Below are positions 518 through 20,452 of a DNA stretch of 21,155 nucleotides, piece after piece. The stretch covers positions 1 through 21,155 of the forward strand of contig JBHLRZ010000047.1 in assembly GCA_048882045.1 (NCBI GenBank), read 5' to 3'. Below the pieces are notes generated by a model. That model was not told the origin of the DNA. It saw nothing but the letters and a program-made list of their open reading frames with translations, and made no database searches. A program made the translations under genes and the position numbers. The stretch comes from Candidatus Thorarchaeota archaeon (GTDB lineage Archaea > Asgardarchaeota > Thorarchaeia > Thorarchaeales > Thorarchaeaceae). Position 1 is the stretch's first letter, and every line of letters starts with the position of its first letter.

Positions 518-692
518 GAATGAGCGTCGGGCAAAGGTGATCCCACCTGAAAGTTAGTGCCATGTATCATTTACCTCCGTAAAGTTTAGCCTCAGACTGA
601 CAAGTTTCATTGATAAGCTTTGGTATCTGCGTTATATCATATTATCAGAATGACTCTTCGTCTTGGAAGCTACTTCAGAGAGGAGAATAGTT

Positions 693-1952: not shown

Positions 1953-2118
1953 GCATTCCTCTTCTTAACCAATGTCTGCTTCTTAAGCAAACATATGATA
2001 TATGATTAATTCATAATTTTATATATTAAGTCTTCTCATATATTATCTGACTTTTAGAAAATGAGCATGTGAACAAAAGAGAGCCCGCATAGTTAGAAGC
2101 AAAGCGCCATATATTGAA
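1953..2118. promoter_or_regulatory. AT-rich divergent intergenic region (probable promoters for the GTPase-like gene and the LRR gene)
   Basis: 166-bp, strongly AT-rich spacer between divergent starts. TATA-like TTTTATATATTAAG at 2017-2030 and a short inverted repeat TATGA-N5-TCATA at 2001-2015. Confidence 0.5.
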
Positions 2119-2787: not shown

Positions 2788-2893
2788 ATCAAATTTTATA
2801 CATGAGATGGTATCTAAATATACTAGATTATCTTATTTTTTGATATTTCGATATTTTGCTGTTTCAAAGTGGTTGTATTTAGGAGCAGATAGT

Positions 2894-5800
2894 ATGAAGA
2901 AGGCAGGCGCTGCCTTAATAGTAGTAATCATCTTCTTAGTCCCGATGCTGTCTGGGCCTCCTCCTGTAGATAGATTTTCCCTCTTTTCTGATGCAATTGA
3001 GAGGGCAGATGATTACCTACCAAGCGACTGGCAAGATTCAAACTCAGGAAATGGAGATCCATTGCTTGGAAACTTCAACGGATTCAAAGTTGCAAGTGGA
3101 ACGTCAAGTCTTGACTTTTCAAAATCTGGGTTCATTGGTATCGATCCACCATTGGGTTGGAACTCCCAACAGTTAGAGGGACAGCTTGATCATCTCTCGA
3201 TATGGGCGGATGGTGTCTTAGTCAATCCGAATCTTGATTCGTACCATGAAGAACATTGGTTTATGACAGGCAACCCTGAATATAACAACGATCCGTTCTT
3301 TACCCCAGATGGATGGACAATAGTGAAGTTCGATGCGTCTGGTGGTACTGAGCACCCACAGCATGGTGTTTTCGAAATCAATTCATATTCTGGAAATGGA
3401 TACGATAATTCGCAAGGATGGAGATTCGATGCCAATCCTAGCAGTGGGACGACATTAGATCCATCGAATCAGATGTATTTAAGTCAGCAAATTTCTATAC
3501 CCTGGAGAAGTATCTATTCAGCTGAGATCAAATTCCGCTACTATGTTTCAAGTACTTCCATTTTAGACAATGACGTATTTATTTTCACGAGAGTCGAGGA
3601 TTATATTTCAAAGAACAATGTGTTTGTAAGCGGCACACCTATGGATACGTGGCTTCAAGCCACAAATATAGTACCCGCTTCTGCATTCCAATCTATGGAA
3701 GATCTAGGCTCAATGATTTTTGATATAGGTCTTGGAACGGATATAACTGGCATACCTGGAGCCTCAGTTCATGAAGTGTATATTGACGAGGTTGATGTAA
3801 GACTCCAAGTCCGCCCCTTCACAGAACAGATCGATCTACGAGCAAACGGAGCTAAGGTGACGGGATCAACTCAGGGAAGTGTTAGCCCATATGTTCCTGA
3901 TGGAAGTAATAGGGATTGCTACAGCGCACCGGATTCGAATGGAGGATCAGGCGGAGTAGACCTCAATGGATATGGTGACAATGGGTGGCTGGATGTTGGA
4001 GCGGATATCCCAGCCTATCCAGACTGGACAACAGCTTTCAGCTATCAGGCGGGTCTTCAATTTCCATTGCATGTCCCCCAAGGTTCAGCAGTCACATCGG
4101 CCACACTTCAGGTTGAAGCACCTAGTGACTCAACAGGTTTACCAGGAATGCGTATCTATGTTGCCGCTGAAGATGATGTTGCTGCGTTCACAAGTGGGTA
4201 TCCACTTCTTCCTGACAGATACAACTGGGTGAATACAAGCATCTATTGGCGACCCTCAACTTGGATAGCTAACGGGAGGTATGACACACCTGACATAGCC
4301 GCCCTAATTCAGGAAGTTGTATCAAGACCAGGCTGGCAGAGTGGAAATTACATCTGCGTAATGATTGACTATGCATATTCAAATCAGCAGTACGCATACA
4401 ATCAGATAAAGGGCTCAGCAGGATTTGCCCAAGCAGATCTTGCAAGACTATTTGTAGAGTATACCGAGGTTGATCCTTCAGATATAATACCTAGTTTTCA
4501 ATTTAACAAAGACATTGTTTTTGATCACACTAGGGTCGTGGCAGATCTCCAAGACTTTCCTGTTCTTGTGGATATTTGGGATGAGGACCTTCACTTCAAT
4601 ACACAACCTGATGGTGATGATATAGCATTCCTCTACAATGGCCAAGTCATCCCACATGAGCTTGAGTTATTCGATAAGAAAGGAAATGGAACTCACGCAC
4701 ATCTTGTCTGTTGGGTAAAAGTTCCTCAACTTTCGTCTGTCGAAGACACTACAATAGTGATGGTTTATGGTGATGAGGATCTTGGCAGCCAAGAAGACCC
4801 TGAGAGTGTGTGGGACTCTGATTATTCCTCTGTCTTGCATTTGGATAACAACCCTGCACAACCACAGTGGGACTCGACCTACGCGGACTACTTACCACAT
4901 CAACCTCAGATTCTAGACAGTACGTGGAATAATCTTGATGGTTTGTCATATGGTACTATGACCTCGAGTGATAGTGTTAGCGGTCAGATTGGAAATGCAA
5001 TTGACCTTGATGGTATAAACGATTTTGTCGATTTTGGGAATCCCTCAGAGTTGCAGATGAGTGGAGCTTTCACAGTCGAGGCATGGTTCAACGCTGATTT
5101 TATAGATAATGACTATCTTGTAGTCAAGTCAGGTGAAAGCAACTACCGTGGGTGGGATCTCAGTTTTGATGATGATCCAACGATAAGTCCTGCAGGTTGG
5201 GTAATGTTTAGATTCAGTCCAGATGGCGTAGCTATGACAGCCGTTGGTTACGAACGAGTTGACACGGGCCATTGGTATCATGTAGTTGGAGTGTTCAGTC
5301 CTTCATCATATGTAAGATTCTATTTGAATGGTGAACTGGCAGGTGAATTAACATCCGGTGTACCAGCATCTGTGAATGATCCTCCGAATCGGCCTGTTAG
5401 AATTGGCCGAAGGTCCGATAATCCAGGTGGAACATCATATATGGATACAATTGTAGATGAAGTTCGCATATCGACCGTTGCCAGGTCTGATGCATGGATT
5501 AGGACACAATACAACAATCAGAAGAGTCCGCATTTGTTCCTGTCCGTGGGCGATGAGAGTGCAAACTTCCAGTACATGAAAGACATCACTATCGATCATA
5601 CCAGAGTAGATTCTGATCTTGAAGGCTTTCCAGTTTTGATAGATATCTTTGATTCAGACTTACGGACGAAAGTACAAACAGATGGAGATGATATTGCATT
5701 CTTGCAAAATGGTAGGAGTATTCCACATGAAATTGAATTATTCAATCAACAATACAACTCCACTCATGCACATCTCATAGCTTGGGTCAAAGCTGATCTC

Positions 5801-8800
5801 TCATCAGCAGTTGATACTGTGTTGACAATGTACTATGGTAATCCATTGATAGGAAATCAGGAAAATCCGGAAGGCGTATGGGGAATCAACTATTTCGGTG
5901 TCTGGCACCTTGGAGAAACTAGTGGTGACGCACTTGATTCTACGTACTTGGGTATTGATGGGACAGTAATAGGAGGACCAACAAGAGGAGTTTCTGGTGC
6001 TGTGGGAAATGCGTATGCATTCGATGGTAGTGATGACTATATATCTCTAGCAAACTCGTATACTGAGGTGACGGGTACATACTCATTCTGGGTATATCCT
6101 GTAGGTTTTCCACCTGGACCCAATAGTGAAGTCAATTTTATGGGCGCTGATGCCTACCTCAACAGAATTTCCTACTATAATAGTAGGATCAGAGTTGAAA
6201 CAGCAACAGATGCGGAGTATTTTGATTTTACATCAAGCTCAATTGTAGCAGATGATTGGCTGTATGTTGTTTTTGTAAGATCAGGGGATTTTGGGGACCT
6301 CTACATTAATGGTGTTTGGATACAACAAGATGAAGTTGTAGGAGCAAATACTCTAACAGTGAACAGCATAGCAGGGACAGTTGATTTGGACAGAATGGTG
6401 AATGGCACAATGGATGAAGTCCGGATATCAACAGCGGCTCTCTCAGCTGGCTGGATTATTACCGAGTATAACAATCAGCAAAATCCATTCACTTTCTACT
6501 CTTTGGGAATCGAACAGGAAGTAGTAACACCAAAGGAGGTTCCACTTGACTTTACATACAGGAAAGATATTACCATCGACCATACAAAGGTAACATCAGA
6601 CCTCTATGGATTTCCTGTTCTTATCGATCTCTATGATGCAGACCTTCGATTTAATGTCCAACCAGATGGGGATGATATCGTATTTGCAATGGATGGATGG
6701 ATACTCCCTCACGAAATAGAGCTTTTTGAGCAATCATATAATTCCTCTCATGCACACCTCATCGTCTGGGTGCGAGCTGACCTATCAGCTTCGTCTGACA
6801 CAGTCATTTCAATGTACTATGGGAATCCCACTACAGAGAGTTATGAGAATCCCCATAGTGTCTGGGACACATCTTTTGGTGCTGTGTGGCATTTAAGTGA
6901 AGACCCATCAGGAACAGTCTACGATAGCACAGCAAATGGAAACGATGGTGTAGGCCTGCCAATTGGCTCGGAACCCACTCTTCAAACAGGGAAAATATAC
7001 GGAAGCTCGGAGTTCTATGGAGAGGCCACCAACGACAGAATTGAATCACCTCACTCTTCTTCTCTTGTGCTTCAAACAGACATGCTAGTAGAAGCATGGA
7101 TACAGACATCCAATACAGATCCTACCTCTGATGTCATAGTCGCAAAATGGGGAGATGTGGGTCATAGAAATTACTGGCTAGGAAAACTGGATGGTTCAAC
7201 GCTAGCATTTTATGTTGACAACACTCAGAGCGTTACTGCTCCTCTAAGCTGGATCAGCGATGGCAACTGGCATCACATTGTTGGTGTAGCTGATTCTCTA
7301 GGCGGCGATCTGTTATTGTATATAGATGGCATTGAAAGAGGAAATGCCCTTTACAGCGGTTCAACTCAAACAGGAACATCAGTGATTCAGATAGGAAACA
7401 ATCCGGGTTCAACTGGTTTCATTCAAGAATGGGACGGTCGAATAGACGAAGTGCGAGTTTCGAACTCATATCGAAGTCTGGACTGGATTGTGACAGAGTT
7501 CAATAATCAAAACGACCCTGATTCATTCTATTCAATAGCTGGTGAAATCCTTAGTGTTGGAAACTATGAATTCAGTAGACAAGTCATTGTTTCCGCTGGT
7601 TCCGAACCAATTCCAGCTGGATACTCAACTTCAATCACCATTGACCACGGAGCGTTAGTGCTTGCAGGAAAATCGCAGGCTGATGGTGATGATTTACGAA
7701 TACTTTACTGGAATGGTCTAGGTCTAATTGAGTTGGATAGGGTATTGGACTCAGATTCCTTTTGGAGTTCTTCGACAACAAAGTTATGGTTTAAGATTCA
7801 ATCTGATATCCCAGCTTTGACCTCTGACAATAATTACTACTTGTATTATGGAAATCCCTCTGCATTATCTCCGCCGGACAACCACGCTAATGTCTTTCAA
7901 TTCTACGATGGTTTCGAGAGCGGTGACGTGAGCGCATGGGATGGTTCATACACAGATACAGGCGACTCCCTAACAGTAACAACAGAACAGGCGAATACTG
8001 GTTCATATTCAGCAAAAGGAGAAGTTGACAACCAAGCAGCAGCTCAAGCCATGGTCTGGAAAGACTTCAGTGATAAAACGAATTTGTTAGCCAGAGTCCA
8101 CTTCTACATTTCTCCAACATTTTCTACAACTGATCATGTTACGATTATGCAATTCGTAGACACATCATCAGGATGGGTGAATCAGCTGAGTCTGACCATA
8201 CGAGATGATATGACGCTATATCTATGGAACGCCATTGCTGGAGAGGCATATGGATACGGAACAACTAGCGCAATTTCTACAGGTTCATGGCATATGATAG
8301 AACTGCAGGCCAAGTTCTCCACTACAACAGGAGAGGCAAGAATGTGGTTTGATGGAAACCTCGAAGTTGAAGAGACAGGAAAGAATCTAGGGGCAGAGGG
8401 TGTTGATAAGTTCTGTACTGTGTTCTATTGGGCGTCTCCTCAGACTGAGCCTAATATTGTATTTGCAGATGATGTGATGCTCAGACCATACGTGAATCCT
8501 GAGCCTACAACGTCCTTCGGAGCAGAAGTTGATCAAACCGTTCAATTAGGCTATAAGAAAGACATAACCATAGATCATACGAAGGTCACTGCAGATCTTG
8601 ATGATTTCCCATTGCTCATAGACATCTTTGACACTGATCTCAAAACAAAGGTCCAGCCTGATGGAGATGACATCATATTCAAATCAGGGGGCGTCATACT
8701 TCCTCATGAAATAGAAATTTTCGAGCAATCCTATAATGCGAGTCATGCACATCTTGTAGCTTGGGTAAAAGCAGACCTTCTGTCATCAACTGATACAGTT

Positions 8801-11800
8801 ATCACAATGTATTATGGAAATCCGAATATTGATAGTCAAGAAAATGCTCCAGATGTGTGGAACTCTAATTTCAAAGGTGTCTGGCATCTTAGTGAAGACC
8901 CAACCGGAACAATTTACGATTCAAGTGGCAATTTGAATCATGGTACAGGATACAATCTTCAATCAGACGATCAGGTAAGCGGACAGATAGATGGGAGTAT
9001 CGATTTCGACAATGTTCAGGACCATATTGACTGTGGCAACGACAGTTCGTTAAATGTGGGTTCTGTTGATTTCTCACTGTCACTCTGGTTCAAGTATGAT
9101 GGTGTTGACATGGGAGTTCTTGCTGGAAAAGGTGCTGTACTAATGGCTAATCGATATCGACTTAGCATAGAATCAGGCCCAGGAATGTTGATGGCAGAAA
9201 TTGACGATAATACTGTTGCGAAGACCATATTTTCGACTTCAACCTATGGCGATAATTTGTGGCACCATGTTTCTATGGTAAGAGACGGGAACAATCTTCG
9301 GCTATATATTGATGGAGTAGAAGATCCCAATTCTCCAATTGATATTACAGGTTATGGCAGTCTTGACGAGTCGGAGTCATTCTACATTAACGCTTTCCGT
9401 AGTGAGGTCGGTGGTACAATTGGCTATTGGTCTACTGCCAACACAGATGAAGTACGTGTTGCCAAGTTGGCGCTTTCACCGGAATGGATTGCGACTGAAT
9501 ACAGCAACCAAGAGAATCCAGCTAGTTTCTATACTGTAGGACCAGAGATTATTCCAGAGACTGAATATGCACAGACTCTAGAGTTCAAATACAAGAAAGA
9601 GTTGGTAGTTGATCACACAAAAGTCAGCGAAGACCTGGTTGATTTTCCTATGCTTATTGACATCTTTGACAAAGATCTCAGAACTAATGTGCAATCTGAT
9701 GCAGATGATATAATGTTCAAGACTGGGTATGTATGGTGTCCACATGAGATTGTATTCTTCGACAAGACATACAATGAAACACATGCGCATCTTATTGCAT
9801 GGATTAAGACAGATCTTTCCTCAACAATCGATACAACAATCACAATGTATTATGGCAATCCTGAACTAACTTCACAAGAAAATCCAAGTCTTGTATGGGG
9901 CAATTATGTTGGAGCATGGCACTTGGATGAGAGTCCTACAGGACTAGTATATGATAGCAGTCCATTCAACAATGATGGCGTGACTTTAGGATCCATGAGT
10001 GGTTCGGATCTAATTCCAGGTCAAATAGGAAACGGATTCAAATTAGATGGAATTGACGATATGATCAATGTTTCCGAGAGCCCGAGCTTGGATTCAATAA
10101 AATATGCAGGAACACTGTCATTATGGATAAATTGGGTAGATTCCTCCAATGGTGGATATCAGCGTATCATGACCACCAGTGATCGGTTCATATTGAACCC
10201 AACACCACCTCCCACAATTCTCCAAGATGATGGCTTTGAATTCGCAGTACAACCTGATGGGGATAATTACTTCTATCCTTGGGGCGGGAACAGTATTGAT
10301 TACAATCTCGCCACTAATCCATTCACAAATAGTATATGGCATCATCTTGCAGTCACGTTGGATTACTCTTCAAAATCCGTCGTGATATACCTAGATGGGA
10401 CACCATTATCTTTTGCAATCGAGAATGTACCAACAGAGTGGACACAACTAGCCTCGCTAGGCGACTGGTTATGGGGTGCAAATCAACTTGATGCAGCAAG
10501 TCACTTCCAGGGCAGGTTTGATGAAATTCGAGTTACTACTGCTGTGAGATCTGAAGGGTGGATGATAACAGAGTACAATAACCAGTACGATCCGGAATCA
10601 TTCTATTCTGTTGGGGTTGCGGAGCAAATCAGTGGAAGTGGATATATATTCACAACGAATTCAGACACTAGTGTCACAATCGGAGCTGAACTTTCGCTTG
10701 GAGTTCAAACCACGACACTCAGTTATGCAGACGATTTCTCATTAGGTTCATCATTCTCAATAGTAAATGGCAGCCTCCCAATCTGGTCAGCTAATGTATT
10801 GGTATCCCCACCACCCGAAATAGATGCCTTATCCTTTGAGATATCCTATCCTGAAGGCGAATGGTGGCCATTTTCGGTTAAGACTCCATCAGGTGTCGAG
10901 AAGTCGTTCACGACAGATTGGACATGTTTTGATGGTAAACTGATTGTTGAATCAACAGCGATTGATGAATATGGCATGTGGAAGATACAGTTCTTGGATC
11001 GAAATCATGTCCTTGACATGCAAATGGGTCCAAGTGGAGGACCCTATTCCTCCAGTGATAAGTTCGCAGTCGGGGATAATATCCAATTCAGGACGTATAG
11101 TTCTGGAATTACAGGGTCAACAATCTCTCTTGAACTGACAGACCCAACAGGCTCAACATGGTACACTGGAACCACAACATTTCAGGGAGAGAGATTCACT
11201 CTACCTTATTACCACAGGAAACACTTGACAATAAGTCAAACAAAGGTTGCGGAGGATCTTGTTAACTTTCCTGTATTAGTTGATATTTACGATGCAGATC
11301 TCCGCACAAGCGCTCGCCCTGACGGCAGAGACATAGCATTCACAATTGGTGAAGAAACACTTTCACATGAGATTGAACTCTTCGACCAGACATTCAATCT
11401 GACTCATGCGCATCTAATTGCTTGGGTGAAGGTGCCATTGCTCTCAGGTTCCAGTGACACAGTAATCAGCATGTACTATGACAACCCCTTAGCACCCATA
11501 GTTTATGCATCAGGGTCGGTTTGGGATTCGGACTATGTAGGAGTGTGGCATCTTGGAGAGAGTGGTTCAGGAGTCGTAGATGAATATACAGACAGCAGCA
11601 TCTACAAGAACAATGGGCAAGGTGGCAATGGAAATGTGGGTTATGTACCATCAAGAGTGGCAACACAAATTGGTTATGGACAAAACTTCACCGACCACTT
11701 TATTGACTGTGGGAACGCCACCAGTCTTGATATTACGAACAATCAGATCACGCTTCAGCTCTGGATGCAATATCCATCTGCCACACATCCAAATATGGGT

Positions 11801-14800
11801 CCATTCAATCACAAGGGGTGGTACAGTGGCTATCGATTTACAATGTCGCAGAATAGTCAAAACATGAGAATCAATCTAGGACCTAGACCTACTGGTGGCA
11901 CCTATGATTTGGGTACTAGTCAAAACATTGCACCTAATGCCTGGCATCATGTAGTCGCTACTTATGATGGCTCGCTTGTGAAATTCTATATTGACGGGAG
12001 CCAAGACGCAGCAACAATGGAGATGACAACCAACATACTATCAGCACTTCCAGACTCATTCAGAATTGGACATGCAGACCAACCAGAGGGAAAAGCATGG
12101 ACCTTCCCATGGCTTGGCCAAATTGACGAAGTACGCATTTCTAATATTGCGCGTTCTGGTGAGTGGATTCAGACTGAGTTTGAGAACCAGAATAATCCAA
12201 GTGGTTTCTATTCTGTTGGAGCAGAGGAGGATATAGGGTATTCAGAGTCAGCTTCGATAAATTTGGATACCTCAGCTCCCGCAGGAGTTTGGCATTCTAC
12301 AGCACGATACAGTGACAGTAGTTCTGATGTTAATTATAGAGCGGGTTTGTTTACTCGAAGCTTCATCGTGAAACGTGGAACCTCATTGAGCCTAACAGCT
12401 CCAGGTGATGCAGTAGGAGATGGGATTACAACAAAACTCGTTGGCGAGCAACTCTATGTTGAGTTTGAGCTAGAAGATGCATTGGATGCAACTTTAGTCA
12501 GTGGAGCGACAATATCCATGAACTGGAGTGTCAGTGGTGTACCAACAGATGTGCAGCTTAACGATTATGGAGATGGGAGGTATGGAAAGACACTCAACAC
12601 AACTGATTTGGATACATATGGAAGATGGCGAATAGATATTGAATCATCACATCCATTCTATAACAATGCAACAGATTTCTTCTATCTGGATCTCTCCCAT
12701 CGGACATTCTTGACATATGCACCTCCACTCGATGTACCATATGGGGATAATCTTGAGATACGATTGACATTGAAAGACAATTTTGATAATACTCCATTAA
12801 CAGGTGCCATTATTTCCTGCAATGGAACAATTGTAGGTCTACCAACGGACTATGGCAATGGAACATATCTTGTGACAATTGATAGCACAGGTCTCTCAAC
12901 TGGAGAGCATGTATTTAGGTTCACAGCAACTCCAGATACTTCATACCTTCTGAGTAGCAGTATAGACGTCCAATTCACTTACCGACCTATTGCTACTGAA
13001 GTTACACCTCTTACACCCGACACTGTTGATGCCCCTTGGGGCCAGCAAGCTAATACTAGTGTTTACTGTTATGACGTTGACCATGCAGAAATTGGGGTGG
13101 ATGGGGGATTATTCTCGATAGAGCCAGCTACCCAGATCTTGACTTATGATGATGGTGGTGGCTACTATAGCTTAACAATCGACGTGAGTTCCTTAGCTCC
13201 TGGAATTTACTACTTCAATCTGACATTCTCAAAACTGAATTACCAATCATCAATGTCCACAATAAGTATCACAATTCTCCCTCACAGTACAACGCTAAGT
13301 GTAGACCATAACTCCAGTATACCAGTTGGAACCGACGTTTACTTCGATATCTATTGGTTGGATCTGAATCTTGACTCAGTTGTAATTGGTAACGGTAACC
13401 TTAGTCAGGTGAGCTTGGATTGGGGGACAGGAAGTGATAGCTTCTTCGCATTTGGTTTTTGGTTAGATACTAGTGGGTGGGCTGTAGGATCATACTCAAT
13501 CAATGTGACAGTAAGTGCAATTGGAGCTCCAAGATTCTACATTGATTCTTACATTGTTATTCAGCTTGAGATTAGAAAACTGAATGTATACCTTAGTTGG
13601 GATCCACTTGAACCATTTCCAAATGGGAATGACTTTGTTATGTTTGTCTATGTGAATATCAGTGAACCTGGAAATCCAATCGATGGTACACCCATTACAG
13701 GGCTTGATCAGTCTTACTTCAGTGCTACTAACGAAACAGGGGATCCATATACTTTCAAGAGCTTCTCAAACCTCGGGGGAGGTGTCTACCAAATCACAAT
13801 TGATTATACAAGATTCCTTGAGGGGCAGTACAAGATCATTGTCTTTGTCGATTTTCTACCTTCGGAGAACTATATTGATAGAAATACTCCTGAAGTTTTG
13901 TTTACCTACCGTCCAATTCTTACCTACCTATCATCTCCAGACTATCCAACTGTGACAACTAGTTTTGACACAAATGTAACTGTCGCATTATCATATGTCG
14001 ATATCGATCATGTTCAGAATATAACAATCGGAACAATCACTTCTGAGGGAGCATCAATCATCTGGCAACACCTTGGAGATGGAGTTTACGAGGTGTTGAT
14101 AATAGTACAGGGATGGGACCTCGGTGCTCATGAAGTGAATCTTACCGCTGATGCAAATGGATACCAGGCGAAAACTCTGACCTTCCAGATCCTCGTTCAA
14201 ATTGCATACGCATATGCAAGGTCATCAGTTTCCCTCATTGATTTACCCGTCGGGGACACAACAGTGTTCTACGCAGACTATTGGGATATCACACACGATG
14301 AACCAATTATTGGAGCGAATATCAATCATAACTGGACCTATGCTTTGAGTATTACTTGGACTGGAGATCAGTATCGGATTGAACTACCTAGCATGAACGA
14401 CGATTTACTTGGTTCATATCTGATAATGTTCAACTTCTCAAAAGGATCAAACTACCAATTTGGATACTTCAATCTGAGCATCATACTCAGGACTCATCTA
14501 ACAGAGTTCAGACTCGCGGGTGCGGTTGAACCGACAAGCTACAATGCGATGGTCAACATATCTATCTACTGTGGAGACCTCGACAATGATGCCGGTGTAA
14601 TTGAATCTCCAGTTAGCTTTTCAGTTTATGGCGATTCGGGATTGATTCCTGCAACATATGTAAATGATACAGTGCTAGGAAACGGATATTACATTCTAAG
14701 TTTTGCAGCCATAAATTTGGGACCTTCAGGCATCTTTGAACTCACTGTGTACTTCAACTGGACAGGCCCTGTTCAGAAATACTACGATGGGGCACTTGTA

Positions 14801-17800
14801 GCCTCCGTGAAAATAATAGGGGAGGCATCAGATCTCAGTTTGATAGATTCTGCTGAACCCACACCCTATCTCGATAACCTAACATACATCTATCTCTATA
14901 GTGAGCTCTATAGCGGAATCGGTATCTCAAACATTTCTGCACCAGCTGGAAACGTGTTCGTCTATGTTGATTTTGTTGGCTTATCAGTTAGTCCTTCTCA
15001 ATATACAATTAGAGAGGAGATTGGAAACCCAGGTTGTTATTCAGTCGTGTTCAACAGCACGATATTTGGAAGACCTGGAGTATACACCATGATTGTTTAC
15101 GTGAACTGGTCGAGAGGTGTTGATCCGGGGTATGGCAACTGGACCGATACTGTTGCAGTTCGCATCATTCCACGAAGTACTGTAGTAAATCTGATTCCGC
15201 CAGAAAGTACTCCCTTTGGTGTTAATGCAACGTTCTCATTTTCATTCGATGATGTGGCTGAAGCCAGTCCCTACAGAATAGCAAATGGTAGTCAAATGAG
15301 AGTTTCAATCGGATTGCCAGATTATTCAATAATCTATAACGAATCGACAAGGATGTTCCATGTTTCCTTCAATACAAGTGTATTAGGAGCACCTCTAGGA
15401 AGTCGACAATTCACTATTGGTGTAACTTGGAATGGAGAACCATACTATGCCAATGTGACTAGTAGAACAGTAATTGTTAGTGTTAGATTCCGTGAAACAG
15501 AATTTGATTATTCGACTATTAGTCCTACACCTTATGGTGACAATGTGACTCTGCTGCTCACATTCACTGACGTCACATCAGGAAGCAATCAACCAATAGA
15601 TGATGGAGTGGTTACTCTATTCAATGGCACACAAGTGATTCCAGTGTCTGAATATTCCTTCTCTCCAATCGGAAATGGGGAGTATGAGATTGAGTTCAAG
15701 ACAACCTACTTTGCAAAACCTGGCACCTACTCAATTAAAGTAGAAATGAATACAGGTCACTTCTACTATGCTTCAGTAACTGCAACACGATCTCTTAGCT
15801 TACGTTATAGACTAACTGTCCTGCTTATAGAGCCCGTTGCAGAAACACCATTCAACAACTCCCTTGAAGTGATATTTCATTATAGTGATGTGTTAACACT
15901 TGCTGATATTGGGAACGGTTCAACACTAACTAGTATCCGGATTCTGAATGGAAGTTCTTGGATTTTCAATTCAATGTGGCGAAGCGTCTCAGAAGATTAT
16001 CTTCTTACAGTCCAAACGTATAATCAGAATCTTGAGATAGACAAAGAGTATGTTCTTTGGATTGAGGTCAGTTACCCAGACTCCTCGCCATTCTATCTAT
16101 CTTCTGAAACATTTGTTTCGTTTACGTTACGAGAACGACCCACTAGTCTGGAATTGACTACTACCCCAGAACCAACACAATATCTCGAGAATGTCAATTT
16201 CTCGATATATTATGAAGACTCATTGTCATTTGGTGGAATCGCTGGAGCAACAATTACTCTAACAATCAGTGGAATCGATCTGGTGGAAGGAGTGGATTAT
16301 GTACTGGAAAGTCCGGATGAAGGCAGTTATTACATTTCACTCAATACAACAGCTCTTGGCGCAGCTGGAGCAACTGTTAGTCTTGTTGTACAATCATCTT
16401 GGAATGCAACTGCGCCATTCTATTCAACGTCCACCTTAATTCTAAGCCTCAGTGTTACTCAAAGAAACTCAATTGCGGAAATTCTAAGTTCAATACCGCA
16501 GGTCAAATTCCTAGAGAATATCACTTTCACAATTCAGTATAGCGATGTTACAACAGGAAGTGCAATACAGCTCAACAAAAATCAGATGCTAATATACAGC
16601 GAAGGAGATCTATTGCAGATCAATGACTTCTCAATGGTTGATCTAGGAACAAGCTATAAGATATCAATCAATTCTTCGGTATTGAATACGGGATTGGTAA
16701 GTAATTGGAACATTACCTTCTATATAGATTGGCAGAGCAATGTTGCACCATACTACGCAGATGGTCGTGCATCAGCCCGGGTGAGTGTGGTAAACCGAGT
16801 CGGGATTGTAAAGAGTGATACAACGCCCACCGTACCAATCCATGACAACATGACACTGGAGTTCACATATACTGATGACTCAACGCATGCAGGAATCAAT
16901 GGTGCAATTGTAGAATTCGACTGTCTCAGTCCAAGTGGACTCATAGAGGGAGTAGATTTCTGGATCCTTCGAAATGCTGGTAATTACTCAATTCTCGTTG
17001 ATACTGATAGTCTTGGCAGTACTGGAACGTTCACATTTTCTCTTCGTCTACTTTGGAACCCGACCCTAGTACCATTCTATCGAAATACGACAACTATATT
17101 CCTTCAAGGTAGTGTCCGGTTAATTCAGGCTCAACTCACAAATGAAGAACCAGATCCATCGACTGTGCCGATAGATGACAACGTTTCTGTTGTCTTGAAT
17201 TTCCGAGACTTGGATCACGTATCTCCAATCGTTGGAGCAGAGGACTCGTTCTCAGTTGTTTACAAAACAAATGCATCGGGACCAACAACATGGAGTATAA
17301 CTCCAATCTCCCCTGGAGTATATGAACTGATTGTAGACTGTCACGATGCAGGTGCAACAGGGACTAACGCACTCATAATAACATTAACATTTTCAGACTA
17401 TCAGACTGTCGAGATACAGGTCCCATTTCAGATCAGACTCAGACAAGGAGAACTCAATGAACTACCTCCTCCAAGTACATATTTTGGCGAAACAACATAT
17501 GTGATTGTAGAGCTCGTTGACGTGGATGGAGGCAATGCACCTATTGATGGTGCTACTTTGACGATCACTTGGCCAGATATAGGATATACTCCAGATTATA
17601 CATCAATTGGACTAGGTCTATACAATATAACATTGACAACAGCTAGTCTTGATGCAGGTCTCTACACACTTGTGGTAGGTGCTCAAGTAAGTGACTATTT
17701 CATTTCAGATATCTCGGTACCAATTCAGATACGAAGTATACCTACTGAACTCATACTTCCTCAGACCATTTCAGATGTCTACTGGGGTCAGGACATATCA

Positions 17801-20452
17801 TTCTGGGCCATATTGAACAACACTCGCGATGATGTCCTTATTTCTGGGGCTTTGGTTGTTTATCAGTTGGGAGTTCTAGGTGGCGATCTTACTGAAGTAA
17901 TAATTGATCCAGGTAACTATTCTGTCACTCTTGATACAGGAAATCTCGCTGTCGCTTCGACCTACGTTGTATCAATAACTGCCACACTCAAGAACTATGT
18001 CACAGTGACTGGACAACTTACTGTGAATATACTGAAACTGCCAATTAGCCTGACTGTTGTAAGTGAAGCACAGCCAGATGTCTTCAAGGGCAGTGGAGTG
18101 AATATCACAGTCTACGTCAATAATACCAACAGGAATACTCCATTGTTGGGAGCGACGGTCGAAGTCACGTGGCTAGCACAAGGACCCAAGAGCATCATTC
18201 TTTCTCCCGTTCCAGGCTTGGACGGATATTATACTGGATTTGTTAACACAGATGACCTCTTTGTTGGAGAGTATGTCCTCACCATAACAGCTGATAGAAC
18301 TAACTATGTTACTGCGACTACATCTGTTAGTGTAAGAATCAGACAAATCTCGACAGTTGTTTTCCTTGATGCGCTGACGTCAACCTATGGTACACAGACA
18401 TTCAACTGGTCAGATACAATTCGAATTGGAGTGTACGTTCTTGCACCATCTTTGAACGAATCAGATCCGTTATCTACTGGCTTGGCGAATTGTACTGTGG
18501 TATGGTCCCTATCAGGAACAGGTTATACAGGTGAATTTCTCAACGGATCATTACTTGATAGACCAGGATACTTCTACTTCGATTTTGAAACATGGGACTA
18601 TAAGGCATCTACCTACACGTTGAGAATCACAGCTAAACCCAATATCGGAATGTATGCTTATTCCAGTAATCTCACGACGCTCATCATTGAACCAATTGAA
18701 ACATCAGTAGAATCCACATATCTGAGTCCAAAGATTTGGGGTTGGACTGGATGGATCAATCTCACTTACTGGGATCTTCTATTTGATAGAGGAATCGCAG
18801 GAGCTAATGTTTTGGTGGATTGGAATGGTAGTGAGAGTGTATTCAGAGAACTCGCCAATGGTACCTATCAGATCTTCATAAATGCCTCATTAGTATATCC
18901 CGGAATCTATCCCATTTCTGTCATATTTTCGATTGATAATTACAAGAGTGGTACAGGTGTGTTCACTCTCAATGTGAAAGAGGTTCCAACAGCAATAGCA
19001 GCTTATGCACCTGAGGTCAATCTAATTGATGATGATGTTCTGAATCTCCAAGTGCCATATGGAGATGTGCTTCCACTAGTCTTGTTCTATAATGACACAT
19101 GGTACAATAGAGGGATCCTAGGTGCAACTGAGATGACCGGGGTAATTCTTGGTGGATCCACTCTTGGAACGGACTATCTTCTGATTGAGGAGATAGCAGA
19201 TGGTAACTATAGTCTTCTATTGGATACAACAAGGTGGACTGTGAGTCCCAATCCATATAGACTGATTCTAAGCTTCTATCTTGCCAATTGGAGCAGAGCA
19301 ACAATAGAAATTCATGTCACTATTATCAATGTGCCCACAGGTCTCCAAGTCGAAGGGTCCACTTCCATCATCCTAAACTATGGACAAGAGTACAGTATCT
19401 GGGTATTCTATTTTGATACTTGGGAAAGTCATACAGGAGAGGGTATCGCTGGAGCTTCAATGAATGCAACAAGTCTGGATCCTCGCTTTGTGATTGTATC
19501 ACTGAATCAATCTGACCCTTCAAGACCAGGCTGGTATGAAATCAGAGTTTGGTCCCAAAGGACACAGGGATCTGCAATTGTTTCAATTATCATCTCAAAA
19601 GAGAACTATGATCCTAAAAGTGAGTTCATTACGATTTCAGTAGAACCTTCAGATTTTGACATACTCATTGAGCGAGCAATAGTATTCGGTGTACCAATTG
19701 GACTCGTGATAATAGCAGGAGCTGTTCTCTGGACTCGACTGTTCAGTGTTCCAAAGAGACTTCGAGAAATCAGAGGAATGGTGCGAACAATAAGTAAAGG
19801 TAAGATACCAGAGCCACCCGATAATGTCCCAAGCAGGCAAGAGATTGTCGCAGACCTGTTCAATGATATTGCAGAACCACTCGGTATAACGAAAACAGCT
19901 TCGAGTATGCCAGATGTCGCTGTCGCCACCGATGTTCCTGAAATAGAAGAACTGCTCATTCAATTATCAATCCTGTCAAAGCTCACGGTAGAGGAATTTG
20001 AAGACTTCAAACTCGATGTTTCGAAGATGAAGCTGAGCGAGCAAGTTGCCTTTGTCAAGGAGGTAATCAACCAAGAAGCTATCAAACAAGGAAGAATTGA
20101 TGGAAAACCGATGGAAGAGATTCTTGAAGAATCGGCTGCAAAGGCTCGAGCTTCGCTTACAGGAGAAGAGATTGATCAAGGTTTCGATCGAGAACCAGTT
20201 GAAGAGAAATATGAACCAATCGAGATGGAAGAACTAGAGAAACCTCCTCCAGAACCCGTAGAATTCGAAGAAGTCGACACTACCGATATTCTTGATGAAA
20301 GCGAACTAAAGGAGATGCGCAGACGACTAGTAGATGCTGGAATAGACGGGAGTGAACTTGCAACCATCATGGATCAAGCACGTGAACTTCCAAGAGAACT
20401 TGCAGAGGAGCTTCTAAAAAGCATTCTAGGAAAAGGAGGTGAAGATGAGTGA
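2894..20452 (+). CDS. Giant (~5,852 aa) type I membrane surface glycoprotein / putative adhesin-receptor: signal peptide, CBM-like domains, 7x DUF2341+LamG/ConA-like modules, ~23 Ig-like repeats, TM helix, cytoplasmic tail
   Basis: Uninterrupted 17.5-kb ORF. Start reassigned from 2756 to ATG 2894 because AGGAG lies at 2881-2885, the product then begins with a Sec-type signal MKKAGAALIVVIIFLVPML, and the overlap with the LRR gene disappears. Domain motifs are listed as separate features. Confidence 0.93.
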   Translation: MKKAGAALIVVIIFLVPMLSGPPPVDRFSLFSDAIERADDYLPSDWQDSNSGNGDPLLGNFNGFKVASGTSSLDFSKSGFIGIDPPLGWNSQQLEGQLDHLSIWADGVLVNPNLDSYHEEHWFMTGNPEYNNDPFFTPDGWTIVKFDASGGTEHPQHGVFEINSYSGNGYDNSQGWRFDANPSSGTTLDPSNQMYLSQQISIPWRSIYSAEIKFRYYVSSTSILDNDVFIFTRVEDYISKNNVFVSGTPMDTWLQATNIVPASAFQSMEDLGSMIFDIGLGTDITGIPGASVHEVYIDEVDVRLQVRPFTEQIDLRANGAKVTGSTQGSVSPYVPDGSNRDCYSAPDSNGGSGGVDLNGYGDNGWLDVGADIPAYPDWTTAFSYQAGLQFPLHVPQGSAVTSATLQVEAPSDSTGLPGMRIYVAAEDDVAAFTSGYPLLPDRYNWVNTSIYWRPSTWIANGRYDTPDIAALIQEVVSRPGWQSGNYICVMIDYAYSNQQYAYNQIKGSAGFAQADLARLFVEYTEVDPSDIIPSFQFNKDIVFDHTRVVADLQDFPVLVDIWDEDLHFNTQPDGDDIAFLYNGQVIPHELELFDKKGNGTHAHLVCWVKVPQLSSVEDTTIVMVYGDEDLGSQEDPESVWDSDYSSVLHLDNNPAQPQWDSTYADYLPHQPQILDSTWNNLDGLSYGTMTSSDSVSGQIGNAIDLDGINDFVDFGNPSELQMSGAFTVEAWFNADFIDNDYLVVKSGESNYRGWDLSFDDDPTISPAGWVMFRFSPDGVAMTAVGYERVDTGHWYHVVGVFSPSSYVRFYLNGELAGELTSGVPASVNDPPNRPVRIGRRSDNPGGTSYMDTIVDEVRISTVARSDAWIRTQYNNQKSPHLFLSVGDESANFQYMKDITIDHTRVDSDLEGFPVLIDIFDSDLRTKVQTDGDDIAFLQNGRSIPHEIELFNQQYNSTHAHLIAWVKADLSSAVDTVLTMYYGNPLIGNQENPEGVWGINYFGVWHLGETSGDALDSTYLGIDGTVIGGPTRGVSGAVGNAYAFDGSDDYISLANSYTEVTGTYSFWVYPVGFPPGPNSEVNFMGADAYLNRISYYNSRIRVETATDAEYFDFTSSSIVADDWLYVVFVRSGDFGDLYINGVWIQQDEVVGANTLTVNSIAGTVDLDRMVNGTMDEVRISTAALSAGWIITEYNNQQNPFTFYSLGIEQEVVTPKEVPLDFTYRKDITIDHTKVTSDLYGFPVLIDLYDADLRFNVQPDGDDIVFAMDGWILPHEIELFEQSYNSSHAHLIVWVRADLSASSDTVISMYYGNPTTESYENPHSVWDTSFGAVWHLSEDPSGTVYDSTANGNDGVGLPIGSEPTLQTGKIYGSSEFYGEATNDRIESPHSSSLVLQTDMLVEAWIQTSNTDPTSDVIVAKWGDVGHRNYWLGKLDGSTLAFYVDNTQSVTAPLSWISDGNWHHIVGVADSLGGDLLLYIDGIERGNALYSGSTQTGTSVIQIGNNPGSTGFIQEWDGRIDEVRVSNSYRSLDWIVTEFNNQNDPDSFYSIAGEILSVGNYEFSRQVIVSAGSEPIPAGYSTSITIDHGALVLAGKSQADGDDLRILYWNGLGLIELDRVLDSDSFWSSSTTKLWFKIQSDIPALTSDNNYYLYYGNPSALSPPDNHANVFQFYDGFESGDVSAWDGSYTDTGDSLTVTTEQANTGSYSAKGEVDNQAAAQAMVWKDFSDKTNLLARVHFYISPTFSTTDHVTIMQFVDTSSGWVNQLSLTIRDDMTLYLWNAIAGEAYGYGTTSAISTGSWHMIELQAKFSTTTGEARMWFDGNLEVEETGKNLGAEGVDKFCTVFYWASPQTEPNIVFADDVMLRPYVNPEPTTSFGAEVDQTVQLGYKKDITIDHTKVTADLDDFPLLIDIFDTDLKTKVQPDGDDIIFKSGGVILPHEIEIFEQSYNASHAHLVAWVKADLLSSTDTVITMYYGNPNIDSQENAPDVWNSNFKGVWHLSEDPTGTIYDSSGNLNHGTGYNLQSDDQVSGQIDGSIDFDNVQDHIDCGNDSSLNVGSVDFSLSLWFKYDGVDMGVLAGKGAVLMANRYRLSIESGPGMLMAEIDDNTVAKTIFSTSTYGDNLWHHVSMVRDGNNLRLYIDGVEDPNSPIDITGYGSLDESESFYINAFRSEVGGTIGYWSTANTDEVRVAKLALSPEWIATEYSNQENPASFYTVGPEIIPETEYAQTLEFKYKKELVVDHTKVSEDLVDFPMLIDIFDKDLRTNVQSDADDIMFKTGYVWCPHEIVFFDKTYNETHAHLIAWIKTDLSSTIDTTITMYYGNPELTSQENPSLVWGNYVGAWHLDESPTGLVYDSSPFNNDGVTLGSMSGSDLIPGQIGNGFKLDGIDDMINVSESPSLDSIKYAGTLSLWINWVDSSNGGYQRIMTTSDRFILNPTPPPTILQDDGFEFAVQPDGDNYFYPWGGNSIDYNLATNPFTNSIWHHLAVTLDYSSKSVVIYLDGTPLSFAIENVPTEWTQLASLGDWLWGANQLDAASHFQGRFDEIRVTTAVRSEGWMITEYNNQYDPESFYSVGVAEQISGSGYIFTTNSDTSVTIGAELSLGVQTTTLSYADDFSLGSSFSIVNGSLPIWSANVLVSPPPEIDALSFEISYPEGEWWPFSVKTPSGVEKSFTTDWTCFDGKLIVESTAIDEYGMWKIQFLDRNHVLDMQMGPSGGPYSSSDKFAVGDNIQFRTYSSGITGSTISLELTDPTGSTWYTGTTTFQGERFTLPYYHRKHLTISQTKVAEDLVNFPVLVDIYDADLRTSARPDGRDIAFTIGEETLSHEIELFDQTFNLTHAHLIAWVKVPLLSGSSDTVISMYYDNPLAPIVYASGSVWDSDYVGVWHLGESGSGVVDEYTDSSIYKNNGQGGNGNVGYVPSRVATQIGYGQNFTDHFIDCGNATSLDITNNQITLQLWMQYPSATHPNMGPFNHKGWYSGYRFTMSQNSQNMRINLGPRPTGGTYDLGTSQNIAPNAWHHVVATYDGSLVKFYIDGSQDAATMEMTTNILSALPDSFRIGHADQPEGKAWTFPWLGQIDEVRISNIARSGEWIQTEFENQNNPSGFYSVGAEEDIGYSESASINLDTSAPAGVWHSTARYSDSSSDVNYRAGLFTRSFIVKRGTSLSLTAPGDAVGDGITTKLVGEQLYVEFELEDALDATLVSGATISMNWSVSGVPTDVQLNDYGDGRYGKTLNTTDLDTYGRWRIDIESSHPFYNNATDFFYLDLSHRTFLTYAPPLDVPYGDNLEIRLTLKDNFDNTPLTGAIISCNGTIVGLPTDYGNGTYLVTIDSTGLSTGEHVFRFTATPDTSYLLSSSIDVQFTYRPIATEVTPLTPDTVDAPWGQQANTSVYCYDVDHAEIGVDGGLFSIEPATQILTYDDGGGYYSLTIDVSSLAPGIYYFNLTFSKLNYQSSMSTISITILPHSTTLSVDHNSSIPVGTDVYFDIYWLDLNLDSVVIGNGNLSQVSLDWGTGSDSFFAFGFWLDTSGWAVGSYSINVTVSAIGAPRFYIDSYIVIQLEIRKLNVYLSWDPLEPFPNGNDFVMFVYVNISEPGNPIDGTPITGLDQSYFSATNETGDPYTFKSFSNLGGGVYQITIDYTRFLEGQYKIIVFVDFLPSENYIDRNTPEVLFTYRPILTYLSSPDYPTVTTSFDTNVTVALSYVDIDHVQNITIGTITSEGASIIWQHLGDGVYEVLIIVQGWDLGAHEVNLTADANGYQAKTLTFQILVQIAYAYARSSVSLIDLPVGDTTVFYADYWDITHDEPIIGANINHNWTYALSITWTGDQYRIELPSMNDDLLGSYLIMFNFSKGSNYQFGYFNLSIILRTHLTEFRLAGAVEPTSYNAMVNISIYCGDLDNDAGVIESPVSFSVYGDSGLIPATYVNDTVLGNGYYILSFAAINLGPSGIFELTVYFNWTGPVQKYYDGALVASVKIIGEASDLSLIDSAEPTPYLDNLTYIYLYSELYSGIGISNISAPAGNVFVYVDFVGLSVSPSQYTIREEIGNPGCYSVVFNSTIFGRPGVYTMIVYVNWSRGVDPGYGNWTDTVAVRIIPRSTVVNLIPPESTPFGVNATFSFSFDDVAEASPYRIANGSQMRVSIGLPDYSIIYNESTRMFHVSFNTSVLGAPLGSRQFTIGVTWNGEPYYANVTSRTVIVSVRFRETEFDYSTISPTPYGDNVTLLLTFTDVTSGSNQPIDDGVVTLFNGTQVIPVSEYSFSPIGNGEYEIEFKTTYFAKPGTYSIKVEMNTGHFYYASVTATRSLSLRYRLTVLLIEPVAETPFNNSLEVIFHYSDVLTLADIGNGSTLTSIRILNGSSWIFNSMWRSVSEDYLLTVQTYNQNLEIDKEYVLWIEVSYPDSSPFYLSSETFVSFTLRERPTSLELTTTPEPTQYLENVNFSIYYEDSLSFGGIAGATITLTISGIDLVEGVDYVLESPDEGSYYISLNTTALGAAGATVSLVVQSSWNATAPFYSTSTLILSLSVTQRNSIAEILSSIPQVKFLENITFTIQYSDVTTGSAIQLNKNQMLIYSEGDLLQINDFSMVDLGTSYKISINSSVLNTGLVSNWNITFYIDWQSNVAPYYADGRASARVSVVNRVGIVKSDTTPTVPIHDNMTLEFTYTDDSTHAGINGAIVEFDCLSPSGLIEGVDFWILRNAGNYSILVDTDSLGSTGTFTFSLRLLWNPTLVPFYRNTTTIFLQGSVRLIQAQLTNEEPDPSTVPIDDNVSVVLNFRDLDHVSPIVGAEDSFSVVYKTNASGPTTWSITPISPGVYELIVDCHDAGATGTNALIITLTFSDYQTVEIQVPFQIRLRQGELNELPPPSTYFGETTYVIVELVDVDGGNAPIDGATLTITWPDIGYTPDYTSIGLGLYNITLTTASLDAGLYTLVVGAQVSDYFISDISVPIQIRSIPTELILPQTISDVYWGQDISFWAILNNTRDDVLISGALVVYQLGVLGGDLTEVIIDPGNYSVTLDTGNLAVASTYVVSITATLKNYVTVTGQLTVNILKLPISLTVVSEAQPDVFKGSGVNITVYVNNTNRNTPLLGATVEVTWLAQGPKSIILSPVPGLDGYYTGFVNTDDLFVGEYVLTITADRTNYVTATTSVSVRIRQISTVVFLDALTSTYGTQTFNWSDTIRIGVYVLAPSLNESDPLSTGLANCTVVWSLSGTGYTGEFLNGSLLDRPGYFYFDFETWDYKASTYTLRITAKPNIGMYAYSSNLTTLIIEPIETSVESTYLSPKIWGWTGWINLTYWDLLFDRGIAGANVLVDWNGSESVFRELANGTYQIFINASLVYPGIYPISVIFSIDNYKSGTGVFTLNVKEVPTAIAAYAPEVNLIDDDVLNLQVPYGDVLPLVLFYNDTWYNRGILGATEMTGVILGGSTLGTDYLLIEEIADGNYSLLLDTTRWTVSPNPYRLILSFYLANWSRATIEIHVTIINVPTGLQVEGSTSIILNYGQEYSIWVFYFDTWESHTGEGIAGASMNATSLDPRFVIVSLNQSDPSRPGWYEIRVWSQRTQGSAIVSIIISKENYDPKSEFITISVEPSDFDILIERAIVFGVPIGLVIIAGAVLWTRLFSVPKRLREIRGMVRTISKGKIPEPPDNVPSRQEIVADLFNDIAEPLGITKTASSMPDVAVATDVPEIEELLIQLSILSKLTVEEFEDFKLDVSKMKLSEQVAFVKEVINQEAIKQGRIDGKPMEEILEESAAKARASLTGEEIDQGFDREPVEEKYEPIEMEELEKPPPEPVEFEEVDTTDILDESELKEMRRRLVDAGIDGSELATIMDQARELPRELAEELLKSILGKGGEDE
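3881..4462 (+). other. Beta-sandwich domain of the CBM96/DNRLRE-like, PilY1-associated type within the giant protein
   Basis: AGLQF..VPQGSAVTSATLQV...TPDIAALIQEVVSRPGWQSGN...ARLFVEY resembles the GLRF..IPQGA.I.SA.....TPDL..IIQEIV.R.GW.SGN module of many prokaryotic surface proteins (recognised by pattern, not searched). Confidence 0.55.
4496..10624 (+). repeat. Six tandem ~1-kb DUF2341 + LamG/ConA-like modules (starts 4496, 5567, 6551, 7565, 8546, 9584)
   Basis: Recurring KDITIDHT.V..DL..FP.L.DI.D.DL...VQ.DGDDI.F...PHEIE.F...N.THAHL..WV..DL.S..DT...MYYGNP (DUF2341-like), followed by GVWHL.E...W.H....LY.DG...DEVR.S......WI.TEY.NQ..P..FY (LamG-like). The fourth unit is a divergent subtype. Confidence 0.9.
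11201..12229 (+). repeat. Seventh, detached DUF2341 + LamG module
   Basis: RKHLTISQTKVAEDLVNFPVLVDIYDADLR...DGRDIAF...SHEIELF..NLTHAHLIAWVKVP...GVWHLGE...WHHVVATYDG...IDEVRISNIARSGEWIQTEFENQNNP. Separated from unit 6 by ~190 aa of unrelated sequence. Confidence 0.88.
12371..19648 (+). repeat. Stalk of ~23 degenerate ~100-120-aa Ig-like beta-sandwich units
   Basis: Recurring junction R/K-x-x-T-x-L followed by P-Y/F/W-G-D-N-like motifs, then Y.D, I.GA.I, G.G.Y.I.I.T..L..G.Y. I counted 23 junctions by eye. Very rich in S/T/V/I/Y and N-x-S/T. Confidence 0.75.
19676..19732 (+). other. Single C-proximal transmembrane helix of the giant protein
   Basis: AIVFGVPIGLVIIAGAVLW (19 aa) followed by a basic stretch TRLFSVPKRLREIRGMVRTISKGK (positive-inside rule). 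Confidence 0.85.
20435..20441 (+). promoter_or_regulatory. Shine-Dalgarno site for the downstream paralog, embedded in the last codons of the giant gene
   Basis: GGAGGTG lies 7 nt before GTG 20449, which overlaps the TGA stop at 20450-20452 (GTGA). Confidence 0.75.

Follow-up and report, generated by a model that had tools for sequence, protein, structure and literature searches.

A giant surface protein of Thorarchaeaceae with a predicted constant chassis, a variable lectin-like head and a conserved cytoplasmic tail

A single gene occupies most of the DNA analyzed here, raising the question of what a protein of almost six thousand residues might do at the surface of an archaeal cell. The window is the whole 21,155-bp contig C47 (JBHLRZ010000047.1) of the Candidatus Thorarchaeota metagenome-assembled genome (MAG) G000, which comprises 3.63 Mb in 93 contigs and is 93% complete with 44% GC. 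Judging from its sequence, the gene, hereafter giant 1, is genuine and encodes a predicted type-I membrane-anchored surface glycoprotein. The protein is organized as a constant chassis (signal, distal domain, stalk, transmembrane (TM) helix and tail) with a variable payload of LamG- and lyase-like modules. We consider it probable that giant 1 acts as a long-reach multivalent adhesin, which would attach the cell to partners or particles in an envelope without an S-layer.

The division into chassis and payload emerges from comparison with orthologues of 5,176-6,569 residues from independent assemblies. Identity to these orthologues is 62-73% for the distal domain, 56-78% for the stalk and 49-79% for the TM helix plus tail, all of them colinear with 97-100% coverage. 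The cassette array between distal domain and stalk is the least conserved region, at 41-70% identity, and total length among homologues ranges from 3,373 to 6,569 residues. Because the distal domain, stalk and tail are conserved and colinear, while the cassette region diverges and length varies, a constant framework presenting exchangeable modules best describes the pattern.

The original prediction, made from the DNA alone, had raised the concern that the reading frame might be chimeric or collapsed. One open frame runs on the plus strand from 2756 to 20452 of the window, and its coding part spans 2894-20452, starting at the ATG at 2894 with GGAG just 5' of it. Since this ATG is preceded by GGAG and the resulting N-terminus (MKK...FLVP...) is common to the starts of full-length orthologues, we assign giant 1 a length of 5,852 residues. 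DNA repeats inside the gene reach 76% identity at most, which makes collapse or chimerism through repeats unlikely. Orthologues from independent assemblies are colinear over at least 91% of every region and over 100% of stalk and tail (e.g., P0013, 5,889 residues). This colinearity, together with the absence of near-identical DNA repeats, argues against misassembly of giant 1 and speaks for an intact frame. The dimensions first estimated for the protein (a head of ~ 3,150 residues, ~ 23 stalk units and a tail of 239 residues) proved correct to within a few percent.

It is therefore scarcely credible that giant 1 is an assembly artefact, and equally so that it is cargo of an aloposon-like mobile element. 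The fragmentation of the source MAG into 93 contigs and the end of the 21-kb contig within the next giant gene could be taken to point that way, as could the published view that the tandem giant genes of Thorarchaeota are distantly related to the giants of aloposons (PMC8813620). The latter, Otus and Ephialtes of Heimdallarchaeum, share with our locus the tandem arrangement of genes for 3,000-6,000-residue proteins that resemble one another (PMC8813620). However, aloposons integrate at tRNA genes and have four upstream genes including one for a MinD/ParA ATPase (PMC8813620), whereas the 21,155-bp window contains no tRNA gene. Upstream of giant 1 lie instead genes for a Ras-like protein, a leucine-rich-repeat (LRR) protein and aspartyl-tRNA synthetase (AspRS), and housekeeping genes flank the locus in an order that is conserved (AspRS, ESCRT genes, PolB, methyltransferase), which sets it apart from aloposons as described.

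A Kyte-Doolittle scan reveals only two strong hydrophobic segments in giant 1, residues 4-22 (peak 2.25) and 5595-5613 (peak 2.47). The first belongs to a predicted Sec-type signal peptide or signal anchor (residues 1-22; 2959 being the last nucleotide of 2894-2959, on the plus strand like all parts of giant 1), composed of MKK, a 16-residue hydrophobic core and SGP. Its n-region/h-region pattern is kept in all full-length homologues, and a conserved SGP or GEP after the hydrophobic core places a proline near position + 1. The N-terminus does not fit the pattern [KRDE][GA][ALIFQMVED], which we take to be that of class III (pilin-type) signals, and such a signal was rejected. The second segment corresponds to a single TM helix (residues 5595-5616; 19676-19741), present at the same relative place in 63 of 63 homologues and modeled by AlphaFold2 (AF2) together with the juxtamembrane segment as one continuous helix. 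Residues ahead of the helix are acidic, and about eight Arg or Lys occur within the 24 positions behind it. As this Arg/Lys-rich flank fits the positive-inside pattern, the residues after the TM helix are predicted to be cytoplasmic. The two hydrophobic segments, the charged flank and the Pfam and hidden Markov model (HMM) domains described below all agree with the topology first proposed, i.e., predicted signal, head, immunoglobulin (Ig)-like stalk, one TM helix and cytoplasmic tail.

The head starts with a conserved distal domain (residues 24-540; 2963-4513) containing 33 invariant columns and belonging to no known family. No match to it was found in Pfam (29 members), in NCBIfam or, with either the single sequence or a profile, in the PDB. 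Its homologues occur only within the same giant family, a word-index search likewise returning only fragments of that family, and an Atlas lead to CBM96 (0.79) is too weak to use. The variable cassette array follows at residues 541-3110 (4514-12223), as delimited by Pfam and motif positions. Six cassettes combine DUF2341 with Laminin_G_3 and start at residues 541, 898, 1226, 1891, 2237 and 2778 (nucleotides 4514, 5585, 6569, 8564, 9602 and 11225). A further one, at residue 1581 (nucleotide 7634), combines DUF2341 with a Polysacc_lyase-like domain (PF14099, E 3e-10 to 4e-12). Between cassettes, residues 2590-2777 (10661-11224) form a beta-rich stretch with no Pfam or NCBIfam match. Laminin_G_3 (PF13385) reaches 332 bits against a cut-off of 27.6 (E 4.6e-100) over six stretches, and DUF2341 (PF10102) 123.7 bits against 23.4 (E 4.2e-36), several single copies of the latter staying just under the cut-off. 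With both Pfam models above their gathering scores, giant 1 qualifies as a DUF2341 plus Laminin_G_3 protein. The expectation of a head made of multiple lectin folds is thus borne out by seven DUF2341 plus jelly-roll cassettes, which may bind glycans.

The composition of the head raises the possibility that giant 1 captures and degrades polymers, its cassettes binding polysaccharide and PF14099 cleaving it, in the manner of a cell-bound cellulosome or a polysaccharide-utilization scaffold. The Polysacc_lyase match lies above its cut-off (46.9 versus 29.9 bits) and the lyase-like cassette is kept in many orthologues. The LamG clan moreover includes carbohydrate-binding modules, and the weak Atlas lead for the distal domain hints in the same direction. 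Nevertheless, just one cassette in seven is lyase-like, with putative activity, and the examined neighborhoods contain no glycoside hydrolase, transporter or sugar-metabolism genes. Degradation would also leave the conserved tail unexplained, and we regard it as very unlikely to be the role of giant 1.

Between head and membrane extends the stalk (residues 3118-5509; 12245-19420), made of 22-23 diverged Ig-like beta-sandwich units. A self-BLAST of the whole protein gave only the identity match, and the units were therefore compared on tiles. Between residues 3120 and 5509, an iterated HMM recognizes units of 100-110 residues each, 22 of them clearly and one weakly, with 20-40% identity to one another. 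The segment next to the membrane (residues 5510-5594; 19421-19675) is beta-like and falls under the HMM threshold; it is possibly one more diverged unit. The AF2 model of two adjacent units, based on an alignment of 96 repeat windows, is all-beta, with a predicted local distance difference test (pLDDT) score of 89.9 and a predicted template modeling (pTM) score of 0.72. Foldseek matches this model, at E ~ 1e-5, to tandem protocadherin extracellular cadherin (EC) domains at the top and to titin, filamin and SbsC domains, and VIA likewise returns tandem Ig/cadherin-like domains. The S-layer proteins SbsC and Sap are both among the Ig-fold matches. The units of ~ 105 residues thus behave as Greek-key beta-sandwiches resembling solved Ig-like domains. 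In view of the all-beta model and the matches to tandem Ig-fold domains, the term "Ig-like" appears right at the level of the fold, and the predicted stalk of ~ 23 such units holds up in number as well as in fold. Membership of the cadherins was rejected, as residues 3100-5852 give no Cadherin Pfam match and the unit consensus lacks the Ca-binding motifs DxD, DRE and DxNDN.

Closer homologues (P0001-P0031) have 19-22 stalk units. Unit by unit, the stalk is conserved among orthologues, with colinear coverage of 100%, yet a unit shares only 20-40% identity with its neighbors. Since the units are kept across orthologues yet have diverged from their neighbors, the array is old and stable rather than recently amplified. 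If fully extended, 22-23 units of ~ 4.3 nm, the length commonly given for domains in tandem Ig arrays, would give a reach of ~ 95-100 nm. The ~ 90 nm suggested at the outset is in the same way arithmetic on the unit count and not a measurement, although the count itself is sound.

The distribution of N-glycosylation sequons, counted against composition-preserving shuffles, separates the parts of the protein. The stalk contains 66 sequons where 26.3 are expected (z 9.0), a 2.5-fold enrichment that corresponds to one sequon per 37 residues. The cassette head, with 12 observed and 23.9 expected (z -2.8), is depleted; the distal domain has one against 4.6 (z -1.8) and the tail none against 0.3 (z -0.5). 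This partition fits a glycan-coated extracellular stalk, a glycan-free head and a cytoplasmic tail.

The tail (residues 5617-5852; 19742-20449) is an unusual feature for an archaeal surface protein. It is 235-239 residues long, contains 17% Glu, no Cys and no N-x-S/T sequon, and displays 29 invariant columns in an alignment of 34 tails. Three stretches account for most of this conservation: the basic segment next to the membrane, a block in the middle (VPE..ELL.QLS.L ... KM..SEQ..F..EVI.QE) and, beyond an acidic linker of varying length, the terminal module (LS..E.EELR..L...G.P..E...I..QA..LP..L..EL..S). The AF2 model (pLDDT 78.7) shows a corresponding arrangement: a long juxtamembrane helix that carries the basic segment is followed by a middle domain of four to five helices (19931-20161), and a bundle of three helices forms the end (20285-20437), separated from that domain by the acidic linker (20168-20281), which is disordered. 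An internal duplication relating the middle and terminal modules is not supported, hhalign giving it a probability of 0.7%. The terminal module of ~ 55 residues occurs once in the tail of giant 1 and four times in that of the paralogous giant 2 encoded downstream, and because of these four copies it appears to be autonomous. In a subfamily of ~ 4,000-residue homologues, the tails are ~ 405 residues long.

Searches with the tail lead back to the giant family. Pfam and NCBIfam give no match, Foldseek returns a best E of 0.76, a sequence profile against the PDB a best E of 0.41, and Atlas scores stay at or below 0.78. A profile search of 1.84 billion representative proteins yields 131 matches, nearly all of them C-terminal ends or fragments of giant-family proteins, with the last few (E > 1e-6) being weak and partial. 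Hence, no homology of the tail to a known eukaryotic cytoplasmic domain emerges from the profile search of these 1.84e9 representatives and the PDB comparison. Together with the distal domain, it is a candidate new domain family. Reading of the 34 aligned tails reveals no ESCRT late-domain-like motifs (PPxY, P[ST]AP, YPxL).

The length of the tail also bears on the relation of giant 1 to archaeal S-layer glycoproteins. These share with it surface exposure, Ig-like domains, dense N-glycosylation and a C-terminal TM helix. In S-layer proteins, the anchor either stops a few residues past the TM helix or is PGF-CTERM processed. In contrast, giant 1 continues for 235-239 residues, has no PGF-CTERM-like ending and no PGF motif before the TM helix, and thus does not conform to an S-layer anchor. 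Nor is the tail a mere leftover, being conserved to a similar degree as distal domain and stalk, predicted to be helical, and modular in build, which bears out this part of the original prediction.

A structural role could still be envisaged, with the giants forming an amorphous glycan-coated coat that replaces the S-layer, the tail only anchoring or spacing them and no specific ligand being involved. The sequon density of the stalk matches the figure given for S-layer proteins with heavy glycosylation (PMC11284389), the length of the stalk is conserved, several paralogues are present per genome, and SbsC and Sap appear among the fold matches. Yet the variable and sequon-depleted head resembles a binding surface more than packing material, a conserved modular tail of 236 residues exceeds the needs of an anchor, and no lattice-forming domain is recognized. 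We consider such a glycocalyx possible but not likely.

Returning to the adhesin that we favor, the mechanism would combine several features. The head would present modules that bind carbohydrates or ligands and keep them tens of nanometers away from the membrane, on a stalk whose Ig-like domains may have been selected to carry N-glycans. Giant 1 would be made together with giant 2 from a translationally coupled gene, and the tail would recruit or organize cytoplasmic partners, the best candidates being a syntenic LRR protein and a Ras-like pseudo-GTPase. The proposed setting is an analogy with cultured Asgard archaea, none of them Thorarchaeal. Loki-type cells in culture have no S-layer and a single membrane from which unidentified "complex surface proteins" protrude (PMC9834061), putative S-layer proteins were not detected in the proteome of P. 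syntrophicum (PMC11284389), and another Asgard isolate bears an amorphous protein coat (10.1101/2025.11.06.686947).

Several observations weigh against this adhesin model. The conserved proline after the signal core means that the N-terminus may stay in the membrane as an anchor, and an uncleaved anchor would produce a loop instead of a free-standing stalk. LamG and jelly-roll folds occur also in enzymes and in structural proteins. The Ras-like neighbor lacks the P-loop lysine, rendering classical GTPase signaling doubtful, and roles assigned to the distal domain and the tail are guesses, as neither has a recognizable family. The cultured Asgard lineages do not have the giant-family tail, and we know of no cultured or imaged Thorarchaeon.

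The range of the tail was examined among 400 genomes of the phylum. It is found in 80 of the 85 genomes of the window's own family, the Thorarchaeaceae, covering all 16 genera, and in the single genome of the sister family. Elsewhere in the phylum, nine genomes give weak matches (E ~ 1e-6), and the largest other family has none in 135 genomes. NCBI labels on the homologues are mostly Thorarchaeota, with a few Sifarchaeia, Hermod-, Odin-, Loki- or Promethearchaeota. To call the protein "Asgard-type", as was initially done, is therefore too broad, and "Thorarchaeaceae-type" describes it better. Each genome holds 1-11 tail matches, which are matches and not gene counts. In several relatives, a lone in-frame stop codon interrupts the reading frame that surrounds the tail match, TAG in G385, G386, G319, G349, G353, G334 and G382 and TGA in G324 and G362; sequencing error, a split gene or recoding could be the cause.

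The MAG itself holds at least six such genes, two in tandem on contig C3 and others on C23, C53, C28 and the window, and tandem giant pairs are found at three of its loci and in relatives. The further pairs lie on C3 (171519-193475; 4,086 and 3,187 residues) and C23 (42218-53562; 2,568 and > 1,220 residues), and another member on C53 (1-4110). In those on C23 and C53, the tail domain is represented by its first half alone.

In the window, the second member of the pair, giant 2, starts at 20449 on the plus strand and runs off the contig (20449-21153). Its GTG overlaps the TGA stop of giant 1 (GTGA) and lies 9 nt after GGAGGTG, and its N-terminal frame is 30% identical to residues 7-205 of giant 1 (E 3e-23). 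The same 4-nt overlap, followed by a second giant gene for ~ 3,800-4,400 residues, is seen in L009 and on the P0029 contigs, and the pair occurs also in L011, L012 and L008. This arrangement indicates that giant 1 and giant 2 are translationally coupled. Giant 2 continues on contig C28 (32453-43222, minus strand), which has the same order as L011 and L012, namely the rest of giant 2, methyltransferase, aminotransferase and PolB. Once reverse-complemented, C28 is colinear with the sequence that follows giant 2 in L011 and L012, which makes it very probable that C47 and C28 are genomic neighbors. An extra Ras-like paralogue is located on C28 between giant 2 and the methyltransferase.

Directly upstream of giant 1 lies the gene for the LRR protein (2119-2787, plus strand; 222 residues; LRR_8 E 2.3e-14). 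It has no hydrophobic N-terminus or signal peptide and is predicted to be cytoplasmic, and its L009 orthologue, with 56% identity, is found at the equivalent position. The MAG contains many other LRR genes (on C57, C20, C56, C12 and others). On the opposite strand follows the divergently transcribed Ras-like gene (693-1952, minus strand), coding for a protein of 419 residues (Ras E 4.8e-13) with a conserved N-terminal extension of ~ 210 residues. Its P-loop reads GEDGVGVNS, with neither the Lys nor the Ser/Thr of the expected GxxxxGK[ST]. Synteny, read from the contigs of shorter homologues, adds an orthologue in L009 (7735-9015, minus strand) to the paralogue on C28 (30422-31624, plus strand; 59% identical). 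In 3 of 3 copies, the P-loop has the form GE[DR]GVGV[NS]S, DxxG is lost and NKTD is kept, and the protein encoded in the window retains ETS as well. The Ras-like protein is thus a conserved pseudo- or atypical GTPase. L009 and the P0029 contigs repeat the order Ras-like gene, small-protein gene, giant 1 and giant 2, and coordinates show it in G364, G355, G343 and G375 as well, so that two genera are represented. In G355 and G343, two Ras-like genes in tandem adjoin giant 1.

Farther upstream, the window starts inside AspRS (1-183, minus strand). The L009 locus (684-7246) adjoins AspRS and an ESCRT cluster (Snf7, two DUF285 genes, Vps4, ESCRT-II and EAP30), and contig C46 of the MAG ends inside Vps4 just after Snf7 (21096-22233), so that the same adjacency is likely in this genome. 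Because the P0029 contigs do not have it, it may be incidental. A 70-residue reading frame between AspRS and the Ras-like gene (305-517, minus strand) resembles a small winged-helix (MarR/TrmB-like) DNA-binding protein.

These neighbors invite a reading of giant 1 as a transmembrane signaling receptor, in which ligand binding at the head is relayed via the tail to the LRR and Ras-like proteins, as in eukaryotic receptor-small GTPase modules. Such a relay would agree with the gene order shared by two genera and metagenome contigs (Ras-like, LRR, giant 1, giant 2), with the strongly conserved tail and with an LRR protein that, having no signal peptide, resides on the same side of the membrane as the tail. 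On the other hand, the degenerate P-loop and lost DxxG recur in each of the three Ras-like copies examined, a single TM helix under a flexible stalk of ~ 100 nm is a poor conduit for conformational signals, and a different paralogue pair, L010, occurs without Ras-like and LRR neighbors. Signaling of this kind strikes us as improbable. We also tentatively entertain, as an unlikely variant, an integrin-like heterodimeric linker made of giant 1 and giant 2, whose variable lectin head would bind a partner cell or matrix. Its tails, with one and four copies of the terminal module, would couple this contact to a cytoplasmic machine, be it the LRR/Ras-like pair, actin filaments of the cytoskeleton or the nearby-encoded ESCRT system.

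Comparison with known proteins places the probable adhesin among other giants. Like giant 1, the nanohaloarchaeal SPEARE proteins combine a Sec signal, a huge ectodomain that includes Ig-like domains in tandem, a membrane anchor and a sizeable cytosolic part, and a role in attachment between cells has been proposed for them (PMC10266531). Their cytosolic part, however, consists of a VirB4/TraG-like ATPase with a coiled coil, whereas the tail of giant 1 has neither an ATPase nor any Pfam domain; head and lineage (DPANN) differ as well. Neurexins, protocadherins and Fat/CELSR have a similar topology, in which a signal precedes LamG and/or Ig or cadherin beta-sandwich repeats, and a single TM helix leads into a cytoplasmic tail some hundreds of residues long. 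No sequence relationship connects these eukaryotic adhesion receptors to giant 1, and the likeness is analogy rather than membership. Accordingly, the designation "eukaryotic receptor-like" in the original prediction has to be restricted to topology, given that the tail profile matches nothing outside the family and that the tail has no PDB, Pfam or NCBIfam match.

Part of what we describe is already known. Orthologues of giant 1 are present in public databases under generic names, and tandem giant genes of Thorarchaeota have been noted, namely as pairs in two MAGs for which Wu et al. (2022) reported no function (PMC8813620). A survey found Laminin_G_3 to be the commonest domain of archaeal proteins > 5,000 residues, the function of these proteins being not understood (PMC11573180). 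These archaeal "huge proteins" and the Thorarchaeota entries named DUF2341 or LamG-like jellyroll have the same Pfam content as giant 1, and the entries include direct orthologues. Neither the survey (PMC11573180) nor the database entries describe the chassis and payload, the fixed-length sequon-rich stalk, the conserved tail or the synteny, and in the literature on Asgard DUF2341, LamG or adhesin-like proteins we found no characterization. The new elements are the predicted chassis/payload organization, the sequon partition, the orphan, modular and family-restricted tail, and the conserved pseudo-GTPase and LRR neighbors.

The proteins protruding from the membrane of cultured Asgard archaea are believed to bring about those contacts between cells on which models of eukaryogenesis center, and the giant family offers concrete candidates for one lineage, with a conserved chassis that would present exchangeable lectin-like modules far from the cell. 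If the two giants did form an integrin-like linker, an Asgard lineage would have invented outside-in surface coupling independently of eukaryotic adhesion receptors. It is unusual among archaeal surface proteins to find a modular cytoplasmic domain that is conserved, together with cytoplasmic neighbors that are conserved too, and the family thereby makes it testable whether Asgard surface proteins communicate with the cell interior.

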